A stretch of DNA of 64,000 bases from an uncultured bacterium (GCA_963749445.1 CAVVMJ010000010.1:254021-318020); one strand, 5' to 3'. Positions 2,764 to 53,807 are shown, counted from the stretch's first letter. Numbers and translations: made by a program. The notes: a model not told the origin generated them from the letters alone.

Positions 2764-4002
2764 ATGAAAACATCGGATATATTCGAAGAGTCCTACAGCG
2801 CCCTAACCGTAAACAAAGTCCGGACGTCTTTGACCATGCTCGGCATTATTATCGGCATCGGCAGCGTCATTGCCATGGTGGCCGTGGGCCAGGGCGCGCA
2901 GGCTACGATTGCGGCCAACATTGCCTCCATCGGGTCCAATTTGATTATTGTTTCCCCGGGCGCCCAGCGCGGCCCGGGCGTTACCGTCAGCGCGGGCTTG
3001 GGCAGTTCCCAAAGCCTGACCATGGCCGACGAGCAGGCCGTGGCCCAGCAGGTTACCCTGGCCCAGGCTGTAGATCCGGAACTTTCCAAGCGTTACCAGG
3101 TTACGGCCAAAGGCACCAACACCAACACTACTGTCTTAGGCACGGACCAAAACTATCCCACGGTCAGGAATTTGACCATTGACACCGGCTCGTTCATCAC
3201 CGCCCAGGAAGTCACCGATTTGGCCAAAGTCGCAGTGCTCGGGCCGACCACGCGGGATGACCTGTTCGGCGTCGGAGCCAGCGCCATTGGCCAAACTATA
3301 AAAATTAACTCCATTGAATTCAAAGTCATCGGCATAACCACGGCCAAAGGCGGCAGCGGATTTACCAACCAGGATGACAGGATTTACATTCCCATTTCCG
3401 TATCCCAGCACTATTTAACCGGCCCCAACGCCGATGGGCAGCCGTATGTGAGCAACATCGCTGTTTCCGCCCAAAGCGCCAACGATATGTCTACCGTGCA
3501 ACAGGAAGTTACGGATGTCCTGCTGCAGCGCCACAAAATTTCTGATCCTACGCAGGCGGACTTTACCGTCCAAAACCAAGCGGACATTGTCTCGGCCGCT
3601 TCCTCGGTCACCGGCACGTTCACGTTATTGTTGGCCTCGATCGCGGGCATTTCCCTGGTGGTCGGCGGCATCGGCATTATGAACATGATGTTAACTACGG
3701 TAACGGAACGCACGCGCGAAATCGGTTTGCGCAAAGCCATTGGCGCCACGCGCAGCGACATTAATTTACAATTTTTGACCGAAGCGATTTTGCTCACCTT
3801 CATTGGCGGGACCATCGGCATCCTGTTCGGCTGGCTATTGGCTTTTTTGCTGTCGCACTTCGCGGGCACGACCACTTCGGTTTCCACCTCATCAATACTG
3901 TTGGCCTTTGGCGTTTCCGCGGGCATCGGTTTGGTATTCGGTTATTATCCGGCCCGCCGCGCTTCCAAATTAAATCCGATAGAGGCTTTAAGATTTGAGT
4001 AA
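2764..4002 (+). CDS. ABC transporter permease, MacB/FtsX family
   Basis: 412 aa. N-terminal TM, a large periplasmic domain, then three C-terminal TM helices with the FtsX-like motif (GIMNMMLTTVTERTREIGLRKAIGA). Operonic with the ATPase and MFP. Confidence 0.85.
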   Translation: MKTSDIFEESYSALTVNKVRTSLTMLGIIIGIGSVIAMVAVGQGAQATIAANIASIGSNLIIVSPGAQRGPGVTVSAGLGSSQSLTMADEQAVAQQVTLAQAVDPELSKRYQVTAKGTNTNTTVLGTDQNYPTVRNLTIDTGSFITAQEVTDLAKVAVLGPTTRDDLFGVGASAIGQTIKINSIEFKVIGITTAKGGSGFTNQDDRIYIPISVSQHYLTGPNADGQPYVSNIAVSAQSANDMSTVQQEVTDVLLQRHKISDPTQADFTVQNQADIVSAASSVTGTFTLLLASIAGISLVVGGIGIMNMMLTTVTERTREIGLRKAIGATRSDINLQFLTEAILLTFIGGTIGILFGWLLAFLLSHFAGTTTSVSTSSILLAFGVSAGIGLVFGYYPARRASKLNPIEALRFE

Positions 4003-5487: not shown

Positions 5488-6141
5488 ATGAAAACAGAAA
5501 GCTCGCAAACTCCAGAAACGGCTTTTAACGAGGGCAACGGGAGCGGCTCGACAGAACAAGAGGCGCCGCCTTTGGCCAATAAAGAGTGCAGCGAACAGGA
5601 AATAATCCAGGCCTTAGCCGGCGTGGAAGCTAAAACCAGAAGACTACTGATAAAAATGCTAAAGAAACCCGATGAGGTTGACGATGCTTGGCAAGAAATA
5701 TCAGAACGAATATGGCAAGCTTTATCCGAAGCCAAGTTCAGGGGAGAGTCAACTTTTGACAGCTGGGTTTACCGTATTGCAACAAATGAGGCGAACAGCC
5801 GCCTGAAAAACAAAAAGAATAACCCTCTGCATTATGCCAGTGGGGAAGGTACGATCGATGAACCTCGGGATCACGGCCCAAACCCGGAAGAATTACTACG
5901 GCAAAAACAATTAACCGAACAAATAGCCCGTGTTATGCGAGTTTTGTCGGAAAGAGACCAAAATATTTTATTGCTGAGGGACAGAGACAATCTGCCTGTA
6001 CAAAAAATCGCTGACATTTACGGTTACGGGTTATCAAACACAAAAACATTAATACATAGGGCAAGGAAAAGATTCAGAAAAGAATTTACGCGGCAACAAC
6101 TAATTGACAATCGCGGTCACCCCGGGAAAAATCCTGAATAA
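5488..6141 (+). CDS. RNA polymerase sigma factor, sigma-70 ECF subfamily, with an acidic N-terminal extension
   Basis: Region 2 (WVYRIATNEANSRL) and region 4 HTH (LRDRDNLPVQKIADIYGYGLSNTKTLIHRARKRF) are recognisable. Confidence 0.8.
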   Translation: MKTESSQTPETAFNEGNGSGSTEQEAPPLANKECSEQEIIQALAGVEAKTRRLLIKMLKKPDEVDDAWQEISERIWQALSEAKFRGESTFDSWVYRIATNEANSRLKNKKNNPLHYASGEGTIDEPRDHGPNPEELLRQKQLTEQIARVMRVLSERDQNILLLRDRDNLPVQKIADIYGYGLSNTKTLIHRARKRFRKEFTRQQLIDNRGHPGKNPE

Positions 6142-6200
6142 AAATCATGGTCGGCAAATAACCGTTCGCCCACCGGAAATTTTTATGGTATAATCACAAC

Positions 6201-21892: not shown

Positions 21893-21956
21893 AGGTCGCG
21901 GTATTTCCCGCCAGAGGCGGGTCCGCCTTTGGCGGAAATTAACCAAATTTTATAAT

Positions 21957-36753: not shown

Positions 36754-38706
36754 ATGAAAAGGGATAACATACGAAACATCGCCATTATCGCCCACGTGGA
36801 CCACGGCAAGACTACGCTGGTGGATGCCATGCTAAAGCAAACCCACAGCATCAAAGACGACGCCGCGGATTTGGTAATGGACAGTATGGATTTGGAGCGC
36901 GAGCGCGGCATTACTATCAAAGCAAAAAATGCATCTCTGATATATAATGGGGTAAAAATAAATATTGTAGATACGCCAGGCCACGCGGATTTTGGCGGCG
37001 AAGTGGAGAGAACTTTAAAAATGGCCGACGGCGTCCTGCTTTTGGTGGACGCCAAAGAAGGCCCAATGCCCCAAACCAAATTCGTGCTCAAAAAAGCTTT
37101 GGAGCTCGGACTTAAAGCCATTGTCGTCATCAATAAAGTGGACAAGCCCGACGCCCAGGTTGACCACAGTGTCAATCATACTTTTGATTTGTTCGTCAAA
37201 CTAAACGCCACCCACAACCAATTGGATTTTCCGATTATTTATGCTTCGGGGGTAAGGGGTCTGGCGGATTTGAATTTGGAAAATCTTTTGGAAAAAATCT
37301 CCGCCCAAGGCGGATCCGCCTCCGGCGGAAAATACTCTGGCGAACCCGACGTCTCTCCCCTGTTTGACGCCATCATCAAATACATCCCCGCCCCGGAAGT
37401 GGAAATGGAAGATGCCTTTGCCGTGCAAATTTTGGCTTTGGCTTACGACAACTACTTGGGCCGCCTGGGCATCGGCAAAGTGTTTTCGGGGAGCTGTAAA
37501 AAAAACCAGAACGCCATGCTGATTAAACAGAGCGGCGAGCGGATGACCTCTAAAATTACTTCCCTGCAAATGTACGAAGGCTTAAAACAAATTGACGTGG
37601 AAGAAGCCGTGGCCGGCGACATTGTGGCTTTTGGCGGCTTTGACGACATCCACATTGGCGACGTTTTAACCGATCCCCTAAATCCCAAAACCCTGCCGCC
37701 CGTGGAAATTGAGCCGCCCACAATAAAGATGACCTTTGGCGTCAACACTTCCCCGTTTGCCGGCCGCGAAGGCAAGTATGTGACCTCGCGCCAGTTGCGC
37801 GAACGCTTAATTAAGGAACTGGAAACCAATGTGGCGCTAAAGGTCCAGGGCTTGGAACAGGGTTCGGATTCGTTTTTGGTGTCCGGCCGCGGCGAACTGC
37901 ATTTGGCGGTTTTAGTGGAAACCATGCGGCGCGAAGGTTTTGAACTGCAGGTTTCCCAACCCGAAGTTATCTACCATTATCAAAGGCCGGACGGTTCTTC
38001 GTCCCCTCTCCCTTTGGGAGAGGGCCAGCCTGCCCGCCAAAGCCTTGGCGACGGCGGGGGTGAGGGTTCGGAGAAAATGACAAAACTCGAGCCATACGAA
38101 ATTCTAACGATTGATGTCCCTTCCGAACACCAGGGCGTCGTAATTGAAGAACTCGGCAAGCGCGGCGGACAAATGCAAATCCTGGAAACCGGCCACGGCG
38201 GCGACGTGCACGCCGAATATTTAATCCCTACGCGTGGCTTGATTGGCTTAAAAAACCTGCTGATGACGCGCACCCGCGGCACCGTGGTCATAAATAATCT
38301 TTTTGACAGTTATAGGCCCGTGCACGACATAGACACCCGCAGCAACGAACACGGCAGCTTGATTGCCTCAGAGTCCGGCCAAAGCAACTCTTACGGCTTA
38401 AACAACGCCCAGCAGCGCGGCATGTTGTTTATCGGCCCGGCCGTTGACGTTTACGAGGGCATGGTGGTGGGCAAAAATTCCGTGGACAGCGATTTGGAAT
38501 TAAACGTCTGCCGCACCAAAAAACTCACCAACATCCGCTCCTCCAGCTCCGATGAAGCCATTATTTTAACTCCTCCGCGTCCGGTGGAACTGGACTTCGC
38601 TCTGGAATACATCGGCGCCGACGAGCTGGTAGAAGTTACGCCGCAGTCCATCAGGATAAGAAAGCGGATATTAAACGCCACCGAACGCAAACGCGCCGCG
38701 AAATAA
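36754..38706 (+). CDS. typA: translational GTPase TypA/BipA, with two in-frame insertions derived from repeat elements
   Basis: G1 AHVDHGKTT, G3 DTPGH, G4 NKVD. Collinear with E. coli BipA throughout. It is 650 aa rather than the usual about 605, because of inserts at about 37300..37340 (GGCGGATCCGCC palindrome, peptide AQGGSASGGKYSGEP) and about 37985..38075 (family-B repeat, peptide RPDGSSSPLPLGEGQPARQSLGDGGGEGSE). Confidence 0.9.
   Translation: MKRDNIRNIAIIAHVDHGKTTLVDAMLKQTHSIKDDAADLVMDSMDLERERGITIKAKNASLIYNGVKINIVDTPGHADFGGEVERTLKMADGVLLLVDAKEGPMPQTKFVLKKALELGLKAIVVINKVDKPDAQVDHSVNHTFDLFVKLNATHNQLDFPIIYASGVRGLADLNLENLLEKISAQGGSASGGKYSGEPDVSPLFDAIIKYIPAPEVEMEDAFAVQILALAYDNYLGRLGIGKVFSGSCKKNQNAMLIKQSGERMTSKITSLQMYEGLKQIDVEEAVAGDIVAFGGFDDIHIGDVLTDPLNPKTLPPVEIEPPTIKMTFGVNTSPFAGREGKYVTSRQLRERLIKELETNVALKVQGLEQGSDSFLVSGRGELHLAVLVETMRREGFELQVSQPEVIYHYQRPDGSSSPLPLGEGQPARQSLGDGGGEGSEKMTKLEPYEILTIDVPSEHQGVVIEELGKRGGQMQILETGHGGDVHAEYLIPTRGLIGLKNLLMTRTRGTVVINNLFDSYRPVHDIDTRSNEHGSLIASESGQSNSYGLNNAQQRGMLFIGPAVDVYEGMVVGKNSVDSDLELNVCRTKKLTNIRSSSSDEAIILTPPRPVELDFALEYIGADELVEVTPQSIRIRKRILNATERKRAAK
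37985..38075. repeat. GC-rich palindromic repeat, family B (copy B3), in-frame inside typA
   Basis: cccctctccctttgggagaggg dyad plus aagccttggcgacggcgggggtgagggttcgg, similar to copy B2. Confidence 0.6.
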
Positions 38707-38795: not shown

Positions 38796-39314
38796 TTACC
38801 ACTCCTTGTCGTCCGCGCTCGGGCCGTAAATTTTCGGCACCGCGATGTTGTTTAAGCGCATATAAACCGTAAGCTGGCCGCGGTGGTGGACCAAATGGTT
38901 AATAGTATCGCAGACAGTGTTCTTTTTGCTGTCTGTAGCCAAAACCTGATCTTTCATTTTTAAGGAAAAAGGCTTTTCCAAATCCGCGTCCGAAACTTTT
39001 TCCACGGCCCTCTTAGCTGCCGCGAGATTATTGTCAAAAAACTTGAGCATTTCTAAGGTCTTAGTTGGCCGCCCCATTTTAAACGTGGCAAAGTCAATAT
39101 CCCCTTTTTCAATAACGTGCGCGATCCACGCCGGAATACCGGCCACAGTTAAAACCAAATGGCCCATCTTCATGGACTTTTCGTGCGGCTTGTATTCATA
39201 CAAACTTTCCGGCACGCGCTCCAGACATTTCCTGCTGGCAGGCGCCTCGGCCTCCAGTTCCTTTAAATATAACCGTCCTAATGTATCGCTCATAATAGTC
39301 TCCTTTTCCGCCAA
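38796..39314 (-). CDS. DinB/YfiT-like (DinB_2) damage-inducible family protein
   Basis: 172 aa with the HLVHHRGQLTVYMRL motif. The true start may be the internal MSDTL. Confidence 0.6.
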   Translation of the reverse strand: MAEKETIMSDTLGRLYLKELEAEAPASRKCLERVPESLYEYKPHEKSMKMGHLVLTVAGIPAWIAHVIEKGDIDFATFKMGRPTKTLEMLKFFDNNLAAAKRAVEKVSDADLEKPFSLKMKDQVLATDSKKNTVCDTINHLVHHRGQLTVYMRLNNIAVPKIYGPSADDKEW

Positions 39315-39521
39315 AGACGGATCCGCCTTTGGCAGACTTTAATTTTTGATAATATTCTTCCAACGCTGTTCCAATAAATGGTTTGCCATATAAACGGCCC
39401 TAAAAATGTAAACGGATTCCGCGCGCCAACGTTACACATAAAGGAAGCTTTAACAAATTCAACAAAATCGCGTATCTGTAATATATGAAAGGTCGAAATT
39501 AATGTAGAAAGACATAAACTT

Positions 39522-45261: not shown

Positions 45262-45588
45262 CTATTGGGGTGTGGCGCCCGCCGGAGCCGGCGCGGCCGC
45301 GGGGTTAAAAGGATCTCTGGTCAGGCCGCCGCTGGGCTGGAAATTTTGCCCGCTTTGGATGCGCTGGACGTCATAATCATAATCCGAAAAATTTATCCTC
45401 GCCCCGGGTCCGGCGGCGGAAACCGGGGCAATCTGGTTTTCCAGCTTAATGACCATGTCAATGGCGTCCTTGGCGACCAAACCGTCCATAACCAATACCA
45501 CCAGCAAAATCGCCAAAAACAAATAACGGACGTCAAATTTGAAGTGGCGGAGGTCTTTTAAATTAAGATTGGCGGAGAGGTTCTTCAT
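45262..45588 (-). CDS. PilP-like type IV pilus assembly protein
   Basis: 108 aa. N-terminal TM and an RDPF motif near the C-terminus. Last gene of the pilMNO(P) operon. Confidence 0.45.
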   Translation of the reverse strand: MKNLSANLNLKDLRHFKFDVRYLFLAILLVVLVMDGLVAKDAIDMVIKLENQIAPVSAAGPGARINFSDYDYDVQRIQSGQNFQPSGGLTRDPFNPAAAPAPAGATPQ

Positions 45589-45702
45589 AAATTTAAGCTA
45601 GCGCGCCATTAATTTAAGATTGATGGCCGCAAACATTGTAAAGACATTCTGCCGATGGAATTTTTGGTGGTATCGAATAAACATAATTAAATTAAAAGCG
45701 CG

Positions 45703-46245
45703 CTAATGGCTGCGGATATAGAGGGTGGCGCTAATGGCGGCATTGACCGTGCCGCCGGCGCCGGTTAGATTTAAAGAGTTCAGGCTGACGGCAAAATCCA
45801 GATTTTCCAAATTCTCAACGGTGTCCACCACCTTGCTGAAAGAGCCGTTAATTGAAATGCTCACCGGGATCAAATAAAGCGGGCTTTTGGTCGGGGCTTT
45901 GGGTACGCTCCCGATGGTGCCGCTAATTCCTCCCAAAGTTAAGCTCACGCCCCGGACATTGCCCAAATTCTCAAAAACCTCAATTTCTTTAACCAAGGTA
46001 ATGTCTTGGCTAAAAAAATCTATCGGCTGAAGGGATTTGGCTTTCATGTCGTTCAAATCCTGCAGGGCCAACTGATAATTTTTGTCTTCCGCCTGTAAAG
46101 CCAACAACTGGTTCTTTTGTTTGGAAATTTGCGCCAAAGCGGCGCGGTTAGACTGGTCCAGAATTTTAAAACCGTACAAAAACATCGCCCCGCAAAGGCC
46201 CAGCCACAACACGGCAGCAAGATAAATTTTAGTCCTAATACTCAT
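45703..46245 (-). CDS. pilO: type IV pilus assembly protein PilO
   Basis: 180 aa. N-terminal TM plus coiled coil, then a periplasmic domain. Operon position after pilN. Confidence 0.6.
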   Translation of the reverse strand: MSIRTKIYLAAVLWLGLCGAMFLYGFKILDQSNRAALAQISKQKNQLLALQAEDKNYQLALQDLNDMKAKSLQPIDFFSQDITLVKEIEVFENLGNVRGVSLTLGGISGTIGSVPKAPTKSPLYLIPVSISINGSFSKVVDTVENLENLDFAVSLNSLNLTGAGGTVNAAISATLYIRSH

Positions 46246-46837: not shown

Positions 46838-46857
46838 AAATCGTTAGGCATTTAAAA

Positions 46858-46916
46858 AATTCTCTAATTCTCTAATTCTCTAATTCTCTAATTCTCTAAT
46901 TCTCTAATTCTCTAAT
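46858..46916. repeat. tandem octanucleotide repeat (TCTCTAAT) x about 6.5 in the pilM-pilN spacer
   Basis: Read directly: ttctctaattctctaattctctaattctctaattctctaattctctaattc. Confidence 0.9.
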
Positions 46917-47967
46917 TCAACCCGCGCATGGCCAATCCCACGGCAGTGGCAAATCCCAAGGATTCGCCCGGATCTAAAGGCTGCGACTTTAACCCCAAAA
47001 TCCCCTGCCAGGGATTGCCCAGCTCCACGGGCGGGCTGCCGAACTCGCTGAACTGCGGGCTTAAAAACTCGGGCAAATTTTTTAGCCGGGCGGCGCCGCC
47101 CGCCAATAAAATTTTCTTAACCTGCTTGCCGGAATGCTCGCCGTGGAACCTTAAAATGCTTTTGATCTCCGCGCTGAGATTGTTCAGCACCGGCAGTAGC
47201 GCGATTTTGATATTCGGGTAGTCGGCGGTGTTGGCAATACCCACTTTCTTTTTGATTTCCTCGGCCTTGACGTTGGATACACCCAAAATTTTGGCAATAT
47301 TCTCGGTAAAATTATTACCGGCAATGGGCACAGTGGAAGTGAACTGTAAATTTCCATCCTCCACCATGACCAGGCTGCTGCGAAACGCGTCCAAATCCAC
47401 AATCAATACCGTGTCCCGGCCGCCGGGCGGCAATAATGCCCGCAGGCAGCTTTGCGACTCCACCTCCAAGGCCGCAGCCTTGACGCCGGCACTGTCCAAC
47501 AGCGACAAATATTGGTCCACAAAATCCTTTGGGGAAGCCACAATTAAAATATTAAGCTTGCCCTCGCTGCTGCCGATTTTTTGCCAGTCCAAATCGACCT
47601 GGTCCACGGGCAAAGGGATAAAACTTTCGGCTTCCACCGGCACCGCGGACTGCGCCTCACTGTCGCTCATTTGGGGAATCTGAATAACCCGGACAAAGGA
47701 CTTGGATTCCGGAAGGCTGACGACGGCGTAATCAGTGTGCAGCTGCCCGTGCTGGCACTTCTGCAAACTGGCTTTCAACATTTGGCTAAAGGCTTTGCCG
47801 TCGGCAAAAGCTTCGTTGACTATCATGCCCTTAGGCAGCGGCACGTCGCTAAAGGCGCGCAGTTTGACTTCCTTGCCGCTCTTGCCCAGCTCCAAAATCT
47901 TCAAGGCGCTGCCGCTGACGTCCAAACCAAAGGCTTTTTTTTGATTGCTAAACAGTTGCCAGGACAT
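46912..47967 (-). CDS. pilM: type IV pilus assembly protein PilM (actin-like ATPase fold)
   Basis: 351 aa, with PilM/FtsA-like motifs throughout. Confidence 0.8.
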   Translation of the reverse strand: MSWQLFSNQKKAFGLDVSGSALKILELGKSGKEVKLRAFSDVPLPKGMIVNEAFADGKAFSQMLKASLQKCQHGQLHTDYAVVSLPESKSFVRVIQIPQMSDSEAQSAVPVEAESFIPLPVDQVDLDWQKIGSSEGKLNILIVASPKDFVDQYLSLLDSAGVKAAALEVESQSCLRALLPPGGRDTVLIVDLDAFRSSLVMVEDGNLQFTSTVPIAGNNFTENIAKILGVSNVKAEEIKKKVGIANTADYPNIKIALLPVLNNLSAEIKSILRFHGEHSGKQVKKILLAGGAARLKNLPEFLSPQFSEFGSPPVELGNPWQGILGLKSQPLDPGESLGFATAVGLAMRGLN

Positions 47968-48185
47968 ATTTACCCGCCTAAATTTGCAATTAGCTATAAA
48001 TAATTTTTAAATTTGATAAATCCAATCCAATTAGACTCTATTTCCTAAACCCAGAGCAAATTTCGGCGGGTTAACTCCGCCTAAATTTTGCCTTAGTTTG
48101 TAAAGTTTATTTTTAATTCCACCCACTAAACTATTATTTTTGCAAAGATGATAAAAATTTCGCAAAATTTTGGCGGGTAAATTAA
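47968..48185. promoter_or_regulatory. conserved leader element of about 210 bp (copy E1), upstream of pilM
   Basis: Block-wise conserved with 51635..51860 (upstream of pilB). Shared blocks: TTTACCCGCCTAAATTTGC, AAATCCAATCCAATTA, GGCGGGTTAACTCCGCCTAAATTTTGCC, TTTTGCAAAG, TTTTCGCAAAATTTTGGCGGGTRAATT. Internal GGCGG/CCGCC dyads. Confidence 0.7.
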
Positions 48186-49393
48186 TTAATATTCTGCGCT
48201 ATCTGGTAAATCGGCGCAATCAGCGCCATGGCCAGCACGCCCACCACGCCGCCGATCACCAACAGCAAAAGCGGTTCAATAATGGACGACAGGTTCTTGA
48301 GGGTGTCATCGACTTGGCCTTCATAATGCTCAGCCAACTGGCCTAACATATCTTCCACCGTGCCGCTCTCCTCCCCCACCTCCAGCATCTGCACCACAAT
48401 GACCGGAAACAAATTGGGATCTTTGCCCAGCGACTCGGTTAAGGGCTTGCCTAACTTGACGTCAACCGCGGCTGCTGCGACCAAGTCTTGATACCAGACA
48501 TTGCCCATGGAATCAGCCGAAACTTCCAAACCCTGGACAATGGGAATGCCGCTTTTCAGCAGGGAGCTCAAAATGCGCGCAAACCGCGCCAGATTAATTT
48601 TTTTGATAATGCCGTTAACGACCAAAAAATGCAGCAGCAGCCAGTCAAGGACCCGTCCTCCGAAAGAAGTTCTGATAAAAGCTATTACTCCCGCCACCAA
48701 ACCGAACATCAGCCCGATGACCAGCGCCGCGTGATGGCTCATAAAGTCAGAAAAAGCGATGACGACTTTGGTGGTAAGCGGTAAATCGCCGGTGCCGAAG
48801 TCCGAAAGCGTGGAGGTTAAGCTGGGCAGGACGAAAATTGACAAAAACACGCCGATGATAATCATAGCCGAAACAATTACCGAAGGATAAATCATGGCGC
48901 CCCGAACCTTGGAACGCAGGTCGGCGTCTCGCTGCAGCTGGATGGTCAAATATTCCAAACTCTTTTCCAAATTTCCGGAAATCTCGCCGACTTTGATCAT
49001 GCTCACAAAAATGTTAGAAAAATTATGCGGATATTTACTAAGAGCCTCGCCCAGGCTTTTGCCCGATTCCACCTGCCCGGCAATATCGCTTAATATGTTC
49101 TTAAACCTGGGGTTTTTGGTCTGCTTGACCTGAATGCTCAAGGCTCGGCTGACCGCAATTCCGGCTTTGAGCATAATGCCCAAATTTTCCGCAAAGCCTA
49201 TCTTTTCCGCAAAGCTGACCGTGCCGAGTTTCTGCAATTGGTCCAAAAACGAAAGCCCCTTGTGTTCCTCCAGCAAAGTCGGCAGAAGGCCCCGCTCTTT
49301 CAGCAAATGGCCGGCGGCGGCCAAATTGCCGGCGGCAATCATGCCGCTTTCGCGGTGCCCGTCTTTAGTTATGGCGTTATATGTAAAATCCAT
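48182..49393 (-). CDS. pilC: type IV pilus assembly / type II secretion platform protein PilC (GspF family)
   Basis: 403 aa with two T2SSF repeats and three TMS. Confidence 0.85.
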   Translation of the reverse strand: MDFTYNAITKDGHRESGMIAAGNLAAAGHLLKERGLLPTLLEEHKGLSFLDQLQKLGTVSFAEKIGFAENLGIMLKAGIAVSRALSIQVKQTKNPRFKNILSDIAGQVESGKSLGEALSKYPHNFSNIFVSMIKVGEISGNLEKSLEYLTIQLQRDADLRSKVRGAMIYPSVIVSAMIIIGVFLSIFVLPSLTSTLSDFGTGDLPLTTKVVIAFSDFMSHHAALVIGLMFGLVAGVIAFIRTSFGGRVLDWLLLHFLVVNGIIKKINLARFARILSSLLKSGIPIVQGLEVSADSMGNVWYQDLVAAAAVDVKLGKPLTESLGKDPNLFPVIVVQMLEVGEESGTVEDMLGQLAEHYEGQVDDTLKNLSSIIEPLLLLVIGGVVGVLAMALIAPIYQIAQNIN

Positions 49394-49438
49394 TGTGGGA
49401 TTGACAAGAATTAAAAGATTTAAATGATTGACAAGAAT

Positions 49439-49828
49439 TTAAGACAATTTGCCCGGGTGATTTTTTATTGAAGTATTTCTGGAAGACGTCATAATGGCAG
49501 TTAATTCATCAGCTTCCTTAAGCAAATCTTGAACTAAAGAAAGCGGAACTACGCCTGACGCGACCAAAAGTTCCAGCCAGCCCAAAGTCTCGTCAGCCTC
49601 TTCAACCACGGTACCCATTTTTGAAATAAAATCCTTGGCTGACTTACATCTGCATACCGCTCGATAATTACCGAAAACACCCGTACCAGAACGTAAAACC
49701 TGGTCGCCCAGCTTCCTTCCGACATTGCCGCAATTCTTTTCCAAATACTGGGCAAGTTTTATAATCTTAATTGCGAATTGTTTTGTTTTTTCCTTTAATT
49801 CTTTTGGATCCATAATTTTTAAAATCAT
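49439..49828 (-). CDS. four-helix-bundle protein (formerly 23S rRNA intervening-sequence protein family, PF05635)
   Basis: 129 aa. LAQYLEKNCGNVGRKLGDQVLRSGTGVFGNYRAVCRCKSAKDFISKMGTVVEEADETLGWLELL is the family pattern. Inserted between pilB and pilC. Confidence 0.8.
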   Translation of the reverse strand: MILKIMDPKELKEKTKQFAIKIIKLAQYLEKNCGNVGRKLGDQVLRSGTGVFGNYRAVCRCKSAKDFISKMGTVVEEADETLGWLELLVASGVVPLSLVQDLLKEADELTAIMTSSRNTSIKNHPGKLS

Positions 49829-49882
49829 GTCGCCGCTTCAATCATGTCAATCTTTTAAATCATGTCAATCTTGTCAATCACA

Positions 49883-51634
49883 CTACTCTTTGCTCACCCG
49901 CACAATTTCTTCCACCGTCGTTATCCCCTTGGCCGCTTTTATAAAACCGTCCTCCCACATCAAAACCATGCCCTCCTTTTCCCCCTGCTCCTGGATTTCC
50001 GGCGCGCTATTGTGGGCCATGATCATCTGCGAAATGGCCGGGCTGACTTCCAGAATTTCGTGGATGCCGACGCGGCCGCGGTAGCCGGTATGGCTACACT
50101 TGTCGCAGCCTTCGCCTTTGAAAAATTGGATGTCCGCCAATGATTTGGCTTTTTCGGGCGCCGCACCGCGCCGCGCCAAAACCGGCAGGAGTTTTTCCAA
50201 ATGGAATTGCTTGGCCAGGCTGCCGAGCACAACCTCGTCCAGCTTAATGGCCGCTTTGCAGTCCTTGCAGATCACGCGGACCAGGCGCTGCGCCAGCACC
50301 GCGTTGATGGTGGAAGAGATCAAGTAAGGCTCCACGCCGATGTCCAAAAGCCGGGGCAAAGCCGAGGCCGCGTCGTTGGTGTGGAGAGTGGAAAACACAA
50401 TGTGGCCGGTCATGGCCGCGTGTACCGCTTCTTCGGCCGTTTCCTTGTCGCGGATTTCGCCGATCATAATGATATTCGGGTCCTGCCGCAGAAGCGCCCT
50501 TAGGCCGATGTCAAAAGTCAGGCCGATTTTGGGGTTGATTTGCATCTGGTTGGCGCCGACCAGCCGGTATTCCACCGGGTCTTCAATGGTGGAAATGTTC
50601 ACGCTCTTGGTATTCAGCATGCTCAAGACCGTATACAGCGTGGTGGATTTGCCGCTGCCCGTGGGGCCGGTCACCAGCATCATGCCGTGCGGCTTTTTGA
50701 TGTTGCGCGTAATCAGGTCAATGCCTTCCGGCTCAAAACCTAAATCTTCCAAAGACGCGGCCTTGGCTGACTCGTCCAGCAGGCGGATGACGACTTTTTC
50801 CCCGTCGAAAATCGGGATCGCGGACACGCGCATGGAAAATTTATAGCCTTCCTTTTCAATCTTAAACCGGCCGTCCTGGGGCAGGCGATGCTCGTCAATT
50901 TTTAAATTGGTCAAAACCTTGATGCGCGCCACAATCGCCGCCTGGATGACTTTGGGCAAAGTCATAACGTCATGGAGCACGCCGTCAATGCGGTAACGGA
51001 CAATCACCGCATTCTCCTGCGGCTCAATGTGGATGTCGGAAGCTTTTTCAAAAATCGCATACTCAATTAACGTGTCCACCACGCGGATGACGGGGATTTC
51101 CTCGGCCATTTTTTTCAGGCCGTCCTCGGCGCTCTCCCCTTCCGGACTGGCTTTCAACGGCTTGTCGGAACCTGTGAACAGGTGTTTGATTTCCTTTTCC
51201 AGGCTGGAGTGGTATTTGGACAGGCCGAACTCCAAACTGCTTTTGCCAATGAGAAAAATTTTAATCTTCAGGCCGGTCTTTTTTTGGATGAATTCCTTGG
51301 TCTGCAGGTCCGACGGGTCGGTCATAGCCAATGACAGGTCTTCCTTGGTTTTGGCGAAACTGATGACCTGATGACGATGGGCAATCGGCTCGGGCACCAG
51401 ATTGAGCACGTCCTGGGCAATGGTTTCGTTGCGCAAATCCACCACCGGCGCGCCCGTGGCTTCGCTTTTTATGGCCAAAAGCTGGTCTTCGGTCACGATT
51501 TTTTTCTCAACCAAAAAATCTTCCCACGACGTAGGCGCCTTTTGGGAATTTAAATCCTTTTCCAGCTGGGCGATGCTGGCATCGGTCAAAAGCTTTTTGC
51601 TTTTTAACACTAAATTGAGTTCCTTTTTATCCAT
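49883..51634 (-). CDS. pilB: type IV pilus assembly ATPase PilB (GspE family) with N-terminal GSPII_E_N domains
   Basis: 583 aa. Walker A GPTGSGKST, Asp and His boxes, and a tetracysteine motif (CKDC...CDKC). Confidence 0.9.
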   Translation of the reverse strand: MDKKELNLVLKSKKLLTDASIAQLEKDLNSQKAPTSWEDFLVEKKIVTEDQLLAIKSEATGAPVVDLRNETIAQDVLNLVPEPIAHRHQVISFAKTKEDLSLAMTDPSDLQTKEFIQKKTGLKIKIFLIGKSSLEFGLSKYHSSLEKEIKHLFTGSDKPLKASPEGESAEDGLKKMAEEIPVIRVVDTLIEYAIFEKASDIHIEPQENAVIVRYRIDGVLHDVMTLPKVIQAAIVARIKVLTNLKIDEHRLPQDGRFKIEKEGYKFSMRVSAIPIFDGEKVVIRLLDESAKAASLEDLGFEPEGIDLITRNIKKPHGMMLVTGPTGSGKSTTLYTVLSMLNTKSVNISTIEDPVEYRLVGANQMQINPKIGLTFDIGLRALLRQDPNIIMIGEIRDKETAEEAVHAAMTGHIVFSTLHTNDAASALPRLLDIGVEPYLISSTINAVLAQRLVRVICKDCKAAIKLDEVVLGSLAKQFHLEKLLPVLARRGAAPEKAKSLADIQFFKGEGCDKCSHTGYRGRVGIHEILEVSPAISQMIMAHNSAPEIQEQGEKEGMVLMWEDGFIKAAKGITTVEEIVRVSKE

Positions 51635-51860
51635 TTACCCGCCTAAATTTGCGGTTACCCACAAATAATTTTTAAATTTATTCAAAATCCAATCCAATTA
51701 ATTCAAACTCTGTTTGTTATCAGGGCAAATTTTGACGGGTTAACTCCGCCTAAATTTTGCCCAAATTGGCAAATTTATATTCTCAACCGCCAAAATTGTC
51801 ATTTTGCAAAGCTTATCGAGAGTTTTCGCAAAATTTTGGCGGGTGAATTTTTTGTTTCAA
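51635..51860. promoter_or_regulatory. conserved leader element of about 210 bp (copy E2), upstream of pilB
   Basis: See 47968..48185. Confidence 0.7.
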
Positions 51861-51957
51861 TGTTGCTGATTTGCCTATTCATTATACCACAAACCTTGCC
51901 AAACGCGCAAAAATAGCACCACTGATAAAAAATATGCGCTCCGCGGCGGCAAAATTA

Positions 51958-52359: not shown

Positions 52360-52493
52360 ATATTTTATTTTTTGTTTTAATGATAAATCTATAACCTTTC
52401 AGAACTTGCCCTGCGGGCCAAATGGTGGAAATGACCCGCAGCGATTGCGGGTCATTATCGTCCCTGCCTTTCGGCTACGCTCAAAACTGCGGC

Positions 52494-53807
52494 CTAGCGG
52501 CCTTGCCAGGTAAAAATATAATACAAGGTCTTTAGGATAATCTCCAAGTCAAACAGTACGCTGCGGTGCTTAATGTAATACAAATCGTACTGCAGCTTGA
52601 GCCTGGTTTCCTCCAGACTGGCGGCGTAGACGTTGTTGATTTGCGCCCAGCCGGTCAGTCCCGGCTTGACCAAATGGCGCTCGTCGTAAAACGGGATATG
52701 CTGTTTCAGTTCTTCAACGATGTGCGGCTGTTCCGGCCTCGGTCCGACCAAACTCATATTGCCAAGCAGCAAATTAATAAACTGCGGCCACTCGTCAACG
52801 CGCGACATGCGCAAAAAGCGCCCAACTTTGGTAATGCGCGGGTCATTAGCGCTTGTCCAGGTATTGGTCGCTCCCCACGACTGCATAGTGCGGTATTTAT
52901 AAACCTTGAAGACTTTGTTGTTTTTGCCTACGCGCTCTTGGACAAAAAAAATCGCGCCGCGCGAAGTGAACTTAATCAGCAAAGCAATCACGGGAAAAGT
53001 CACGGCAAAAACTACGCCGGCAGTCAAGCCGACAACCAAATCGATTATTCTTTTTAATAAATTGTAAAACCGTTTCTCTCGGTAATCGATGTTTTCCAAA
53101 AACCACAGCTCGCTGATCTGGGACAAATAGACGCGGCGCAGCAAGCTTTCGTAAAAATCCTTGTAATTGTAAAAATCCACTCCCGACCGCCTGAGCTCGT
53201 AAAATTTCTTCAGCACCTCCGGCCGCTCGCCTAAATTGTCGGGCAAGACAATGGCCGCGCCTTTGGAAAGCGCCGCCTCGGGCAGGCTCTGGCCGCTGAT
53301 GTGCCCGAGCACCCTAAAACCCAAATAGTTGTGGTGCGCGATTTCCTGCTCCAGCTCGCGCAGTTCGTTGTTAAAAGAAAACAAATACACGCCTTGGGAA
53401 ATCCGGTTCTTGATTAAATACTTAATGAGCAGGTGCCAGCCCAAAATCAACACGAAAGAGACGGCCGCGTCAATCAACAAAAACCTTCTGGGCGTGAAAA
53501 TCAGCAACGGCTGGAAGTAGAAAAAAATGATGGCCGCCAAAACGTTAAACATCATGGCGGAAACCAGGCTGAACACCAGACTGGTGTAACGACGCAGGGA
53601 AGAAAAATCAAACAAGCCGTGGATAAAAAAAATCACGGCCCAGACCAAATAAATCAAGGAAAACAGCCGCAGATGGTTTAGCCAGACCAAAGGCGAAAGG
53701 CCGCCGCCGTAGCGGATTTGAACCGTCAACCACAAACTTAAATAGAGCAGCAGGACGTCGGGCAGCAGGATGATGAGAAAATTTTTGGGCTTATTTACGC
53801 TGGCCAT
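52494..53807 (-). CDS. polyprenyl glycosylphosphotransferase (bacterial sugar transferase, WbaP/CpsE-like), initiating enzyme of exopolysaccharide synthesis
   Basis: 437 aa. N-terminal TMS, and a C-terminal Bac_transf domain (VGKNNKVFKVYKYRTM ... DEWPQFINLLLGNMSLVGPRPE). Confidence 0.85.
   Translation of the reverse strand: MASVNKPKNFLIILLPDVLLLYLSLWLTVQIRYGGGLSPLVWLNHLRLFSLIYLVWAVIFFIHGLFDFSSLRRYTSLVFSLVSAMMFNVLAAIIFFYFQPLLIFTPRRFLLIDAAVSFVLILGWHLLIKYLIKNRISQGVYLFSFNNELRELEQEIAHHNYLGFRVLGHISGQSLPEAALSKGAAIVLPDNLGERPEVLKKFYELRRSGVDFYNYKDFYESLLRRVYLSQISELWFLENIDYREKRFYNLLKRIIDLVVGLTAGVVFAVTFPVIALLIKFTSRGAIFFVQERVGKNNKVFKVYKYRTMQSWGATNTWTSANDPRITKVGRFLRMSRVDEWPQFINLLLGNMSLVGPRPEQPHIVEELKQHIPFYDERHLVKPGLTGWAQINNVYAASLEETRLKLQYDLYYIKHRSVLFDLEIILKTLYYIFTWQGR

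Follow-up and report, generated by a model that had tools for sequence, protein, structure and literature searches.

A family of palindromic cassettes in Doudnabacteria-like Patescibacteria, with two-unit members upstream of pilM and pilB

The Rickettsia palindromic elements (RPE), which Ogata and colleagues described in 2000, are reportedly small palindromic repeats that occur in frame in protein-coding genes and also in noncoding regions, and they have no known transposase of their own. The Correia elements of Neisseria (CREE or NEMIS) are ~100 to 150 bp long and are cotranscribed with neighboring genes; their mRNA hairpin is cut by RNase III, and they can alter the expression of the adjacent gene. 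REPINs are doublets of repetitive extragenic palindromic (REP) sequences that are mobilized by RAYT transposases, and the REPs themselves are usually species specific and located downstream of genes. Here we compare with these systems two blocks of DNA that lie directly upstream of the pilus genes pilM and pilB in a 64,000-nucleotide stretch from an uncultured bacterium (GCA_963749445.1, CAVVMJ010000010.1:254021-318020; "the window" below means this whole stretch). PilM homologues place the organism in the Patescibacteria, near Candidatus Doudnabacteria. On balance, we favor the interpretation that both blocks are two-unit members of a mobile family of palindromic cassettes, resembling miniature inverted-repeat transposable elements (MITEs), in Doudnabacteria-like Patescibacteria, and that these cassettes act in cis on translation and mRNA stability as a portable module of general use, rather than as a sensor specific to the pilus.

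Composition of the blocks and their repeat family

The pilM copy (positions 47968 to 48181, minus strand) occupies all of the sequence between the pilC stop codon and the pilM ATG. The pilB copy (51635 to ~51849, minus strand) lies in the 5' leader of pilB and ends in GGCGGGTAA-ATG, in which the ATG is the pilB start codon. A first-pass annotation of the window had described two blockwise-conserved leaders of ~210 bp upstream of pilM and pilB, and these are real: in a MAFFT alignment, the two blocks, each ~214 bp, have a mean column identity of 81%. The strings quoted in that annotation are also correct (i.e., TTTACCCGCCTAAATTTGC adjoining both start codons, the hairpin block GGCGGGTTAACTCCGCC, and the distal block GCAAAATTTTGGCGGGTRAAT). 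The similarity ends at the block edges and the flanking coding sequence is dissimilar, so the blocks are not part of a larger segmental duplication, a possibility that the annotation itself had raised. A repeat finder recovers two sub-blocks, one of 56 nt (with a score of 84%) and one of 47 nt (89%).

What the annotation overlooked is that each block is made up of four copies of one 16- to 20-nt arm in alternating orientation, which is two tandem inverted-repeat units. A unit consists of a 5' arm, TTYACCCGCCAAAATTTTGC, an AT-rich spacer of ~68 nt, and a 3' arm, GCAAAATTTAGGCGGGTAA, followed by ATG. On the transcript strand, the four arms read TTYACCCGCCAAAATTTTGC (M1), GGCAAAATTTAGGCGGAG (M2), TTAACCCGYCRAAATTTGC (M3), and GCAAATTTAGGCGGGTAA (M4, directly before ATG); M1 can be paired with M2 or M4, and so can M3. 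All arms in the window are on the minus strand. In the pilB copy, M1 (the 5' arm of unit 1) is at 51828 to 51848 and reads ATTCACCCGCCAAAATTTTGC on the transcript strand. M2 (the 3' arm of unit 1; 51745 to 51765; GGGCAAAATTTAGGCGGAG), which was located with an inverted-repeat search, has a GC end that is degenerate relative to single-unit leaders. M3 (the 5' arm of unit 2) is at 51725 to 51743 (TTAACCCGTCAAAATTTGC), and M4 (the 3' arm of unit 2; 51634 to 51652; GCAAATTTAGGCGGGTAAA) overlaps the A/T of the pilB ATG. In the pilM copy, M1 (48162 to 48181; TTTACCCGCCAAAATTTTGC) begins right after the pilC TAA, M2 (48076 to 48092) and M3 (48056 to 48074) were found with the inverted-repeat search, and M4 (47968 to 47987; GCAAATTTAGGCGGGTAAAT) is followed by the pilM ATG. 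The outer ends of the blocks are terminal inverted repeats of 18 nt (ATTTACCCGCC.AAATTT and AAATTT.GGCGGGTAAAT) that are 89 to 94% complementary. Terminal inverted repeats on a short noncoding element, as expected of a MITE, are thus present in the window copies, and they are also present in ~40 of the long-form elements described below.

There are four exact matches to GCAAAWTTTNGGCGG in the window, and all of them are within the two blocks. When the units are scored with a covariance model derived from related elements, those of the pilB copy reach 78.3 and 58.6 bits and those of the pilM copy 78.3 and 48.4 bits. With filters off, this model gives no score above 22 bits in the rest of the window, and a search allowing mismatches likewise gives no further copy there. 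The search for a third copy at other pilus genes, which the first-pass annotation had recommended, therefore yields nothing in the window beyond the four units, and elsewhere the arms are found at nonpilus genes. No arm is followed by a T run on the transcript strand (0 of 4), and the one terminator-like structure called at the central hairpin belongs to the opposite strand; we rejected an intrinsic terminator because of this lack of a U tract. A consensus scan finds no internal sigma-70 promoter in unit 2 on the coding strand, and its sole hit is a weak TTGAAA-16-CAAAAT that overlaps M1 of the pilB copy.

To look beyond the window, we scanned one genome per species in GTDB with the pattern GCAAAN{0,1}TTTWGGCGGGTRAAT. 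Of the 34 stretches that matched, ~24 are in metagenome-assembled genomes (MAGs) of Patescibacteria, which are labeled in their records as Doudnabacteria, Saccharibacteria, Yanofskybacteria, or "Patescibacteria group"; the others are solitary 20-mers in the coding sequence of unrelated bacteria. The same arm pattern matches 87 stretches in metagenome contigs. A viral contig collection contains no copy of the repeat, and a phage origin was rejected for this reason. In the Patescibacteria loci, an inverted partner is present for nearly every arm, and the arm pairs fall into two discrete gap classes, 2 to 5 nt (the short form) and 64 to 72 nt (the long form), with a few pairs at gaps of 35 nt or 75 to 79 nt. 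The window units, with arm-to-arm gaps of 67 to 70 nt, are long-form members. The two-unit arrangement of the window is also found in L077, upstream of trpS, and in L122, upstream of a cupin gene. In a literature search on Candidate Phyla Radiation (CPR) bacteria, Patescibacteria, and Doudnabacteria combined with palindromic elements, MITEs, inverted repeats, and RPE, we found no account of this repeat family, which is apparently undescribed so far.

Two loci have arms in other settings. In L016 (positions 2983 to 3092, with identical sequence in L115 and L120), a tRNA-Val gene lies between the arms, which resemble a processing stem around the tRNA. In L103 (995 to 1294), arms 263 nt apart surround a GIY-YIG-like remnant (a 33-amino-acid open reading frame [ORF] and then a stop) directly upstream of a trxB-like ATG; the Pfam match to GIY-YIG is weak and comes from a hand-joined translation.

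The position of the long form was tabulated for the 33 unique units that have an ORF nearby. In 28 of them an ATG lies exactly 3 nt past GGCGGG (GGCGGG-TRA-ATG). This spacing is not an artifact of the search, since the scan pattern does not require the G of ATG and often matched the other arm. In 13 to 14 of the 33 units, CCCGCC is preceded, at a distance of exactly 7 nt, by the end of a −10 box (TATAAT or TAAAAT, in many cases with TGn), so that transcription would be expected to start on the A that opens the arm. In 6 of the 33, the arm starts 1 to 8 nt past the stop codon of the upstream ORF, and the unit shared by L014 and L067 spans exactly the interval from the rplM stop to the rpsI ATG. 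The genes downstream of the units, named from their sequences (Pfam was run for window genes and short-form hosts), encode proteins like tryptophanyl-tRNA synthetase (trpS), RelA/SpoT, and VKOR, ribosomal proteins L13 (rplM) and S9 (rpsI), HAD hydrolases, an ABC ATPase, a RuvA-like protein, membrane proteins, and PilB, with PilM found in the window only. Units recur at the same gene families in different contigs (trpS, relA-like, VKOR, and pilB). The diversity of these genes rules out a pilus regulon. The first-pass annotation had read the leaders as a shared cis-element of the pilus genes and had proposed a motif scan across genomes to define the regulon; the same arms lie upstream of unrelated genes in other genomes, and the scan returns unrelated downstream genes. 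The related targets expected of a transcription factor operator or a pilus regulon were not found, given that the downstream genes are unrelated, that copies lie within ORFs, and that the window holds no further copy. Within the window, pilB and pilMNO could be coregulated through the same cassette.

The short form, represented by 45 unique copies, is ~45 bp long, has the same arms as the long form, and reads ATTYA-CCCGCCWAAATTTTGC-N3-4-GCAAAACTTAGGCGGG-CAAG/TTTA. In one orientation, 15 of the 45 copies fall within reading frames that stay free of stops for 190 codons or more; in the other orientation, only one copy does. The hosts confirmed by Pfam are FtsZ (in the C-terminal linker), a Mg-chelatase/ComM-like ATPase, a thioredoxin-reductase-like flavoprotein (Pyr_redox_2), a metallophosphoesterase (Metallophos), PNPase (between the RNase PH and KH domains), and N_methyl prepilins (in the leader peptide, just before G|FTLVE); the in-frame hosts are located in L051, L070, L100, L045, L027, L076, L081, and L069. 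The peptide encoded by the insert is ..FTRQNFAKQNLGG.. or ..LPAKILQSKTWAG.., and in its in-gene orientation the short form has an extra A.C mismatch. Direct repeats of 7 to 11 bp flank the short form in L027, L099, L069, L057, L124, L035, L076, and L081 (e.g., CAACCGACA in the PNPase gene and CGCTACACG in L069). A palindrome in frame within functional genes, as in RPE, is a property of the short form only, and the window copies are intergenic. We call the family MITE-like based on its terminal inverted arms, its presence or absence at orthologous sites (see below), and the short form that lies in frame in genes.

Compared with the described systems, the family is like RPE in that small palindromes are found in the reduced genome of a host-dependent bacterium, with in-frame gene copies (the short form) as well as noncoding copies. 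Unlike RPE, however, it has an unrelated arm sequence and in-frame copies of only ~45 bp, and its long form is intergenic and locked to transcription starts and to stop and start codons, which is not a feature of RPE as described. Terminal inverted repeats, a gene-adjacent position, and a similar size are shared with Correia elements. In contrast, the ends of Correia elements, their TA duplication, their IHF site, and their own promoters have been defined by experiment, while the cassette is known from sequence alone, and the strict placement of ATG 3 nt past the arm in a host without Shine-Dalgarno (SD) sites is a feature of the cassette and not of Correia elements. Like REPINs, the long form is a multicopy, intergenic element with two inverted repeats of ~20 nt, a spacer of ~70 nt, and a long hairpin, and some 5' arms also form local hairpins (CCCGC..GCGGG). 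Unlike REPs, the arms are common to many MAGs and lie immediately upstream of start codons.

Proposed insertion history of the window copies

In relatives whose PilM is 67 to 76% identical to that of the window, pilB, pilC, and pilM are contiguous, and in six of these (L001, L003, L004, L126, L127, and L130) the gap between the pilC stop and the pilM ATG is 1 to 3 nt, compared with 214 nt in the window. The pilB leaders of L001, L003, L004, and L130 are short and have an ordinary TGnTATAAT box and no arm motif, and the covariance model finds no unit in the pil loci of those relatives. Excising TTTACCC...GGGTAAA from the window leaves ...AATTAA-T-ATG, which corresponds to the L126 junction ...CAATAA-T-ATG (PilM 75% identical). 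The 1- to 3-nt spacer in six relatives, together with the restored L126-like junction, shows that the pilM copy was inserted precisely, arm to arm. Based on these comparisons, we conclude that the pilM copy is a lineage-specific insertion and not an ancestral shared operator. Presence and absence at orthologous sites, as expected of a MITE, are found at both the pilC-pilM spacer and the pilB leader; in the latter the cassette is present in L128 and absent in L001, L003, L004, and L130.

The pilB leader of L128 (PilM 69% identical) has a single unit and reads TGTGGTATAAT-N~35-AGAAACAAAAAATTCACCCGCC...TGCCAATTTTTGGCAAAATTTAGGCGGGTAA-ATGGAC. Its 5' context and arm match M1 of the window, and its 3' arm and the adjoining small hairpin match M2. 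In the window, M2 ends in GGCGGAG-TTAAC, and then unit 2 follows, which together with the L128 match indicates that unit 2 was added between the old 3' arm and the ATG. The same second-unit event is seen at trpS, where L077 carries a unit before the ATG in comparison with L019, and in all three tandem cases the inner 3' arm is without its GGCGGG end. Since both units and both spacers are shared between the window blocks at ~81%, the composite appears to have been copied whole, from outer arm to outer arm. The comparisons are consistent with a history in which pilB would first have had a single-unit leader, as L128 still does, a second unit would have landed between the 3' arm of the first and the pilB ATG, and the whole M1-to-M4 composite would later have been copied into the 1- to 2-nt pilC-pilM spacer.

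Predicted RNA structure and competing explanations

Under the interpretation that we favor, the cassette would be transcribed within the pil mRNA and its arms would pair either as M1:M2 plus M3:M4 or as M1:M4 plus M2:M3. With either pairing, the last arm and the AUG would be at the base of a 17- to 20-bp stem. This stem would control access to the AUG in a genome that has no SD sites and many leaderless-type genes, and if the transcript starts at the arm, the stem would also cap its 5' end. When the two leaders are folded, both are more stable than shuffled controls (z = −2.75 and −3.72). The minimum free energy (MFE) structure of the pilM copy has M1:M2 and M3:M4, that of the pilB copy has M1:M4 enclosing M2:M3, and in both of these folds the AUG region is largely paired, at 12 of ~15 nt. 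When the 43 window genes with long upstream regions are ranked by the predicted occlusion of the start region by upstream sequence, pilM comes first (−25.2 kcal/mol; z = −8.9) and pilB third (−23.6 kcal/mol; z = −3.9). The predicted placement of a stem at or a few nucleotides from the 5' end, with the AUG in a long-range helix, is similar to that of ompA-type 5' stabilizer stem-loops and start-masking structures. Those of the ompA type are gene-specific sequences, whereas here the same arm sequence serves many genes as a portable module.

Across 16 elements only the arms are conserved and the spacers cannot be aligned, so a conserved aptamer core is absent. The closing stem, which is 19 bp long, is nearly invariant (90.6% of cells are paired, and 8 of the 19 pairs never vary), and 25 of 30 units have an A.A mismatch at the central stem position. 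None of the Rfam families attains its gathering threshold in the region, in either copy searched at permissive E values, in 12 related loci, or in the whole window. RF03005 (lysM-TM7), a candidate cis-regulatory 5' untranslated region (UTR) motif from TM7, a CPR lineage (Weinberg et al. 2017, PMC5737381), is the only family to match over the full length, and it matches the pilM copy weakly, at 25.6 bits compared with a gathering threshold of 61.5, which is too low for membership, and it does not match the pilB copy. Both the cassette and lysM-TM7 are CPR elements of the 5' UTR type with a long closing stem of similar composition, but the internal stems of the model are unmatched and the gene context is different. 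A riboswitch aptamer was rejected, since the enclosed region is unconserved and the only covarying pair is in the closing stem. The suggestion in the first-pass annotation of a structured 5' UTR is therefore fair with regard to anatomy and to the leader-like position, which includes the translation start, but not with regard to a dedicated riboswitch.

A number of observations weigh against our interpretation. Since a single exact arm pattern served for both collection scans, conserved arms are overrepresented in the sample, as related populations may be too. The first-pass annotation had proposed folding the two leaders and looking for covariation; they do fold stably with the AUG paired, but covariation is no higher than in shuffled controls, as the arms hardly vary. 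There is a single compensatory pair (UA to CG in 3 sequences), and no wobble asymmetry is evident (8 G.U versus 6 A.C in 30 sense-oriented units). Because the arms are near invariant and give no strand signal, comparison does not discriminate between a stem in RNA and an inverted repeat that could equally matter as DNA. It is position that speaks for RNA; the fact that the TTT of the 5' arm is upstream of the inferred transcription start hints at DNA-level symmetry. Transcription of the cassette, its pairing as RNA, and its effect on expression are all deduced indirectly. When M1 is forced to be single stranded, the pilM copy keeps M3:M4 and its AUG is not freed, while the pilB AUG is partly freed. 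A ribosome relay, in which termination at pilC opens M1, M2:M3 form, and M4 is freed, was dropped after this constrained fold. With regard to mobility, target site duplications of the long form are ambiguous; for the window copies a duplication of 2 to 3 nt (TAA or AT) is possible and is inseparable from the arm itself. We found no transposase or mobilizing gene, and among the collected loci no arm pair encloses a transposase; the pair in L103 encloses only the GIY-YIG-like remnant.

The RNA-level function of the cassette is inferred, and its presence in these leaders may reflect regulation, tolerance of selfish DNA, or RNase III-type processing. The cassettes might be purely selfish, neutral palindromic insertions (MITE- or RPE-like) that are kept only where they are harmless and that owe their precision to very short spacers and the need to fold back. 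This is a possibility that we consider doubtful. Variable presence at orthologous sites, unconserved spacers, short-form copies in frame in essential genes with flanking direct repeats, and the other, unrelated inverted- and tandem-repeat fillers that the window and L128 have at the same pil junctions would all be expected of such insertions. However, neutral insertion predicts neither an exact 7-nt distance from the −10 box (13 to 14 of 33 units) combined with an exact 3-nt distance to the ATG (28 of 33) nor the recurrence at trpS, relA-like, VKOR, and pilB in different contigs. It is also conceivable, by analogy with intervening sequences but in our view unlikely, that the cassette is a site of RNase III processing in mRNA, at which cleavage of the arm stem would detach the leader or the upstream cistron and leave a near-leaderless mRNA beginning a few nucleotides ahead of the AUG, as would suit translation without SD sites. 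Intervening sequences in rRNA are excised by RNase III. The 17- to 20-bp stem with its conserved internal A.A mismatch is suggestive in this regard, as is a neighboring cassette of the same architecture that carries a 23S_rRNA_IVP-family ORF; 23S rRNA intervening sequences with IVP/S23p ORFs likewise have insert ends that pair. RNase III, along with RNase J, PNPase, and YchF, is retained in CPR bacteria (PMC12641178), and many window genes are of the leaderless type. Nevertheless, the argument is wholly one of analogy, given that the 23S sequences are in rRNA whereas the cassette is in mRNA and its excision is hypothetical. In addition, cutting of the short-form stem within coding regions would destroy essential mRNAs, an objection that is tempered by the extra A.C mismatch of the in-gene copies.

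We regard as improbable the proposal that the arms are DNA operators of a transcription factor, located at +1 to +17 and ~85 bp downstream, that act by looping repression on a regulon including pilB and pilMNO. The conservation of the arms in sequence and not merely in pairing, the fixed distance from the −10 box to the first arm, the tight 64- to 72-nt spacer, and the lack of a strand-specific wobble signal are what operators would predict. They would not account for the fixed 3-nt distance to the ATG, for the placement after stop codons in operons, or for a short form that is a perfect hairpin of ~40 bp in ORFs, in a single orientation and with direct repeats. The arms are 16 to 20 bp, the spacer range covers most of a helical turn without clear phasing, and no candidate factor was identified. 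Less probable again is a riboswitch or RNA thermometer dedicated to the pilus and common to pilB and pilM. In its favor are an AUG buried in a predicted AU-rich, mismatched stem, which is thermometer-like, and the weak lysM-TM7 match of the pilM copy, but there is no conserved core between the arms, that match is far below threshold and is not shared by the pilB copy, and 0 of 12 related loci reach any gathering threshold. A role dedicated to the pilus is contradicted by the presence of the element at many nonpilus genes and its absence from most pilB and pilM relatives. Nothing but the presence of two similar blocks speaks for an assembly artifact or an ordinary segmental duplication, and we give this explanation practically no weight: the copies differ by ~19% plus several indels, the flanking coding sequence is unduplicated, and the same architecture is found in independent contigs from other samples. 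Two further candidates were rejected. A DNA uptake sequence, considered because of the link to pili, does not fit the density of only four arms in 64 kb, and an integron attC site does not fit the absence of the R-box consensus or the fact that the genes are a syntenic core operon.

Operon context and translation in the host

The pil genes of this region are all on the minus strand, and their domains were assigned with Pfam. pilB (49883 to 51634, with its ATG at 51634) encodes a T2SSE ATPase with an MshEN domain, pilC (48182 to 49393, with its stop codon at 48182 to 48184) encodes a T2SSF protein, and pilM (46912 to 47967, with its ATG at 47967) encodes a PilM_2 protein; two ORFs of PilN and PilO size follow pilM. 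An extended −10-like box, TGTGGTATAAT, read from the sequence at 51881 to 51891 (minus strand), ~30 nt upstream of M1, is also found upstream of pilB in L128, L003, L004, and L130 and is probably the pilB promoter. An A-rich string, GAAACAAAAA(A)T, lies upstream of M1 in pilB leaders (~51850 to 51862 in the window) and also occurs just upstream of the start codons of unrelated genes in L065, L068, L083, and L113; it may be a context for SD-independent initiation.

Among 57 crude gene calls in the window, there is no SD-like enrichment upstream of start codons. Many window genes have the arrangement TATAAT-N6-ATG, which is of the leaderless type (e.g., at 6200, 12459, 25309, 27096, and 52493 to 53807). 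Loss of the anti-SD motif has been reported for part of the Parcubacteria (PMC9297842).

Other junctions of the operon also contain fillers. Between pilB and pilC, a filler with unrelated arms and the same architecture (49395 to 49883, minus strand) has a 42-nt inverted repeat (49395 to 49436 and 49842 to 49883; 83% complementary) that exactly bridges the pilB stop and the pilC ATG and surrounds the ORF of the 23S_rRNA_IVP family (129 amino acids; 49439 to 49828, minus strand; identified with Pfam). The relatives have no IVP-type ORF between pilB and pilC. The first-pass annotation had placed pilC, without a copy of its own, downstream of one of the copies. In fact, pilC lies upstream of the pilM copy, which its stop codon touches, and it has this different cassette upstream. 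A third filler, with a 19-nt inverted repeat (TAGCGCGC..TTAATTT; 45599 to 45617 and 45687 to 45705, minus strand), extends from the pilO-like stop to the next ORF, which has its ATG at 45588; this junction is ~10 nt in the relatives. The pilM-pilN gap is filled by a tandem repeat, (AGAGAATT)x7-8, at 46850 to 46918 on the coding strand, which is likewise missing from the relatives. In L128, unrelated fillers made up of inverted and tandem repeats occupy the pilB-pilC, pilC-pilM, and pilM-pilN junctions. The pilB-pilC gap of L128 (4560 to 4670) contains a (CCTAATTC)x7 array and a partly complementary GAATTATG array, analogous to the pilM-pilN repeat of the window, and its pilC-pilM junction (5880 to 6000) contains an unrelated 120-nt filler with the arms CGCGAATATACAAAT and ATTTGTATATTCGCG; here a different inverted-repeat family has inserted independently into the site. 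Elsewhere in the window, a GC-rich double hairpin, TCCGCC(A/T)AAGGCGGATCCGCCTTTGGCGGA, is repeated at 21904 to 21942, 37297 to 37335, and 39304 to 39342 and may be a bidirectional terminator or another repeat family.

A more speculative interpretation, which we put forward only tentatively, is that the cassette is a domesticated bridge that lets SD-less, leaderless-type translation start at an AUG away from the 5' end. The stem would place the mRNA 5' terminus or an upstream stop codon 2 to 3 nt from the next AUG; alternatively, RNase III would excise the stem and regenerate a near-leaderless mRNA. Such a bridge would account for the observation that all fillers of the operon, of any sequence family, have flanking inverted repeats that run from stop to start. 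If either variant is true, palindromic inserts act as mRNA intervening sequences.

Almost nothing is known about gene regulation in the CPR. If our interpretation is correct, these bacteria have a sequence-defined, portable 5'-leader and intercistronic module that is reused at dozens of unrelated genes. This module is tied with single-nucleotide regularity to promoters and to stop and start codons in SD-less genomes, and it would offer a testable handle on how translation starts at leadered and internal cistrons in such organisms. It would also be a second RPE-like case after Rickettsia, with palindromes in frame in core genes (those for FtsZ, PNPase, TrxB-like protein, and prepilins) of reduced, host-dependent bacteria. 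For annotation, the family would be a warning that upstream motifs common to CPR genes may be repeats and not regulons.

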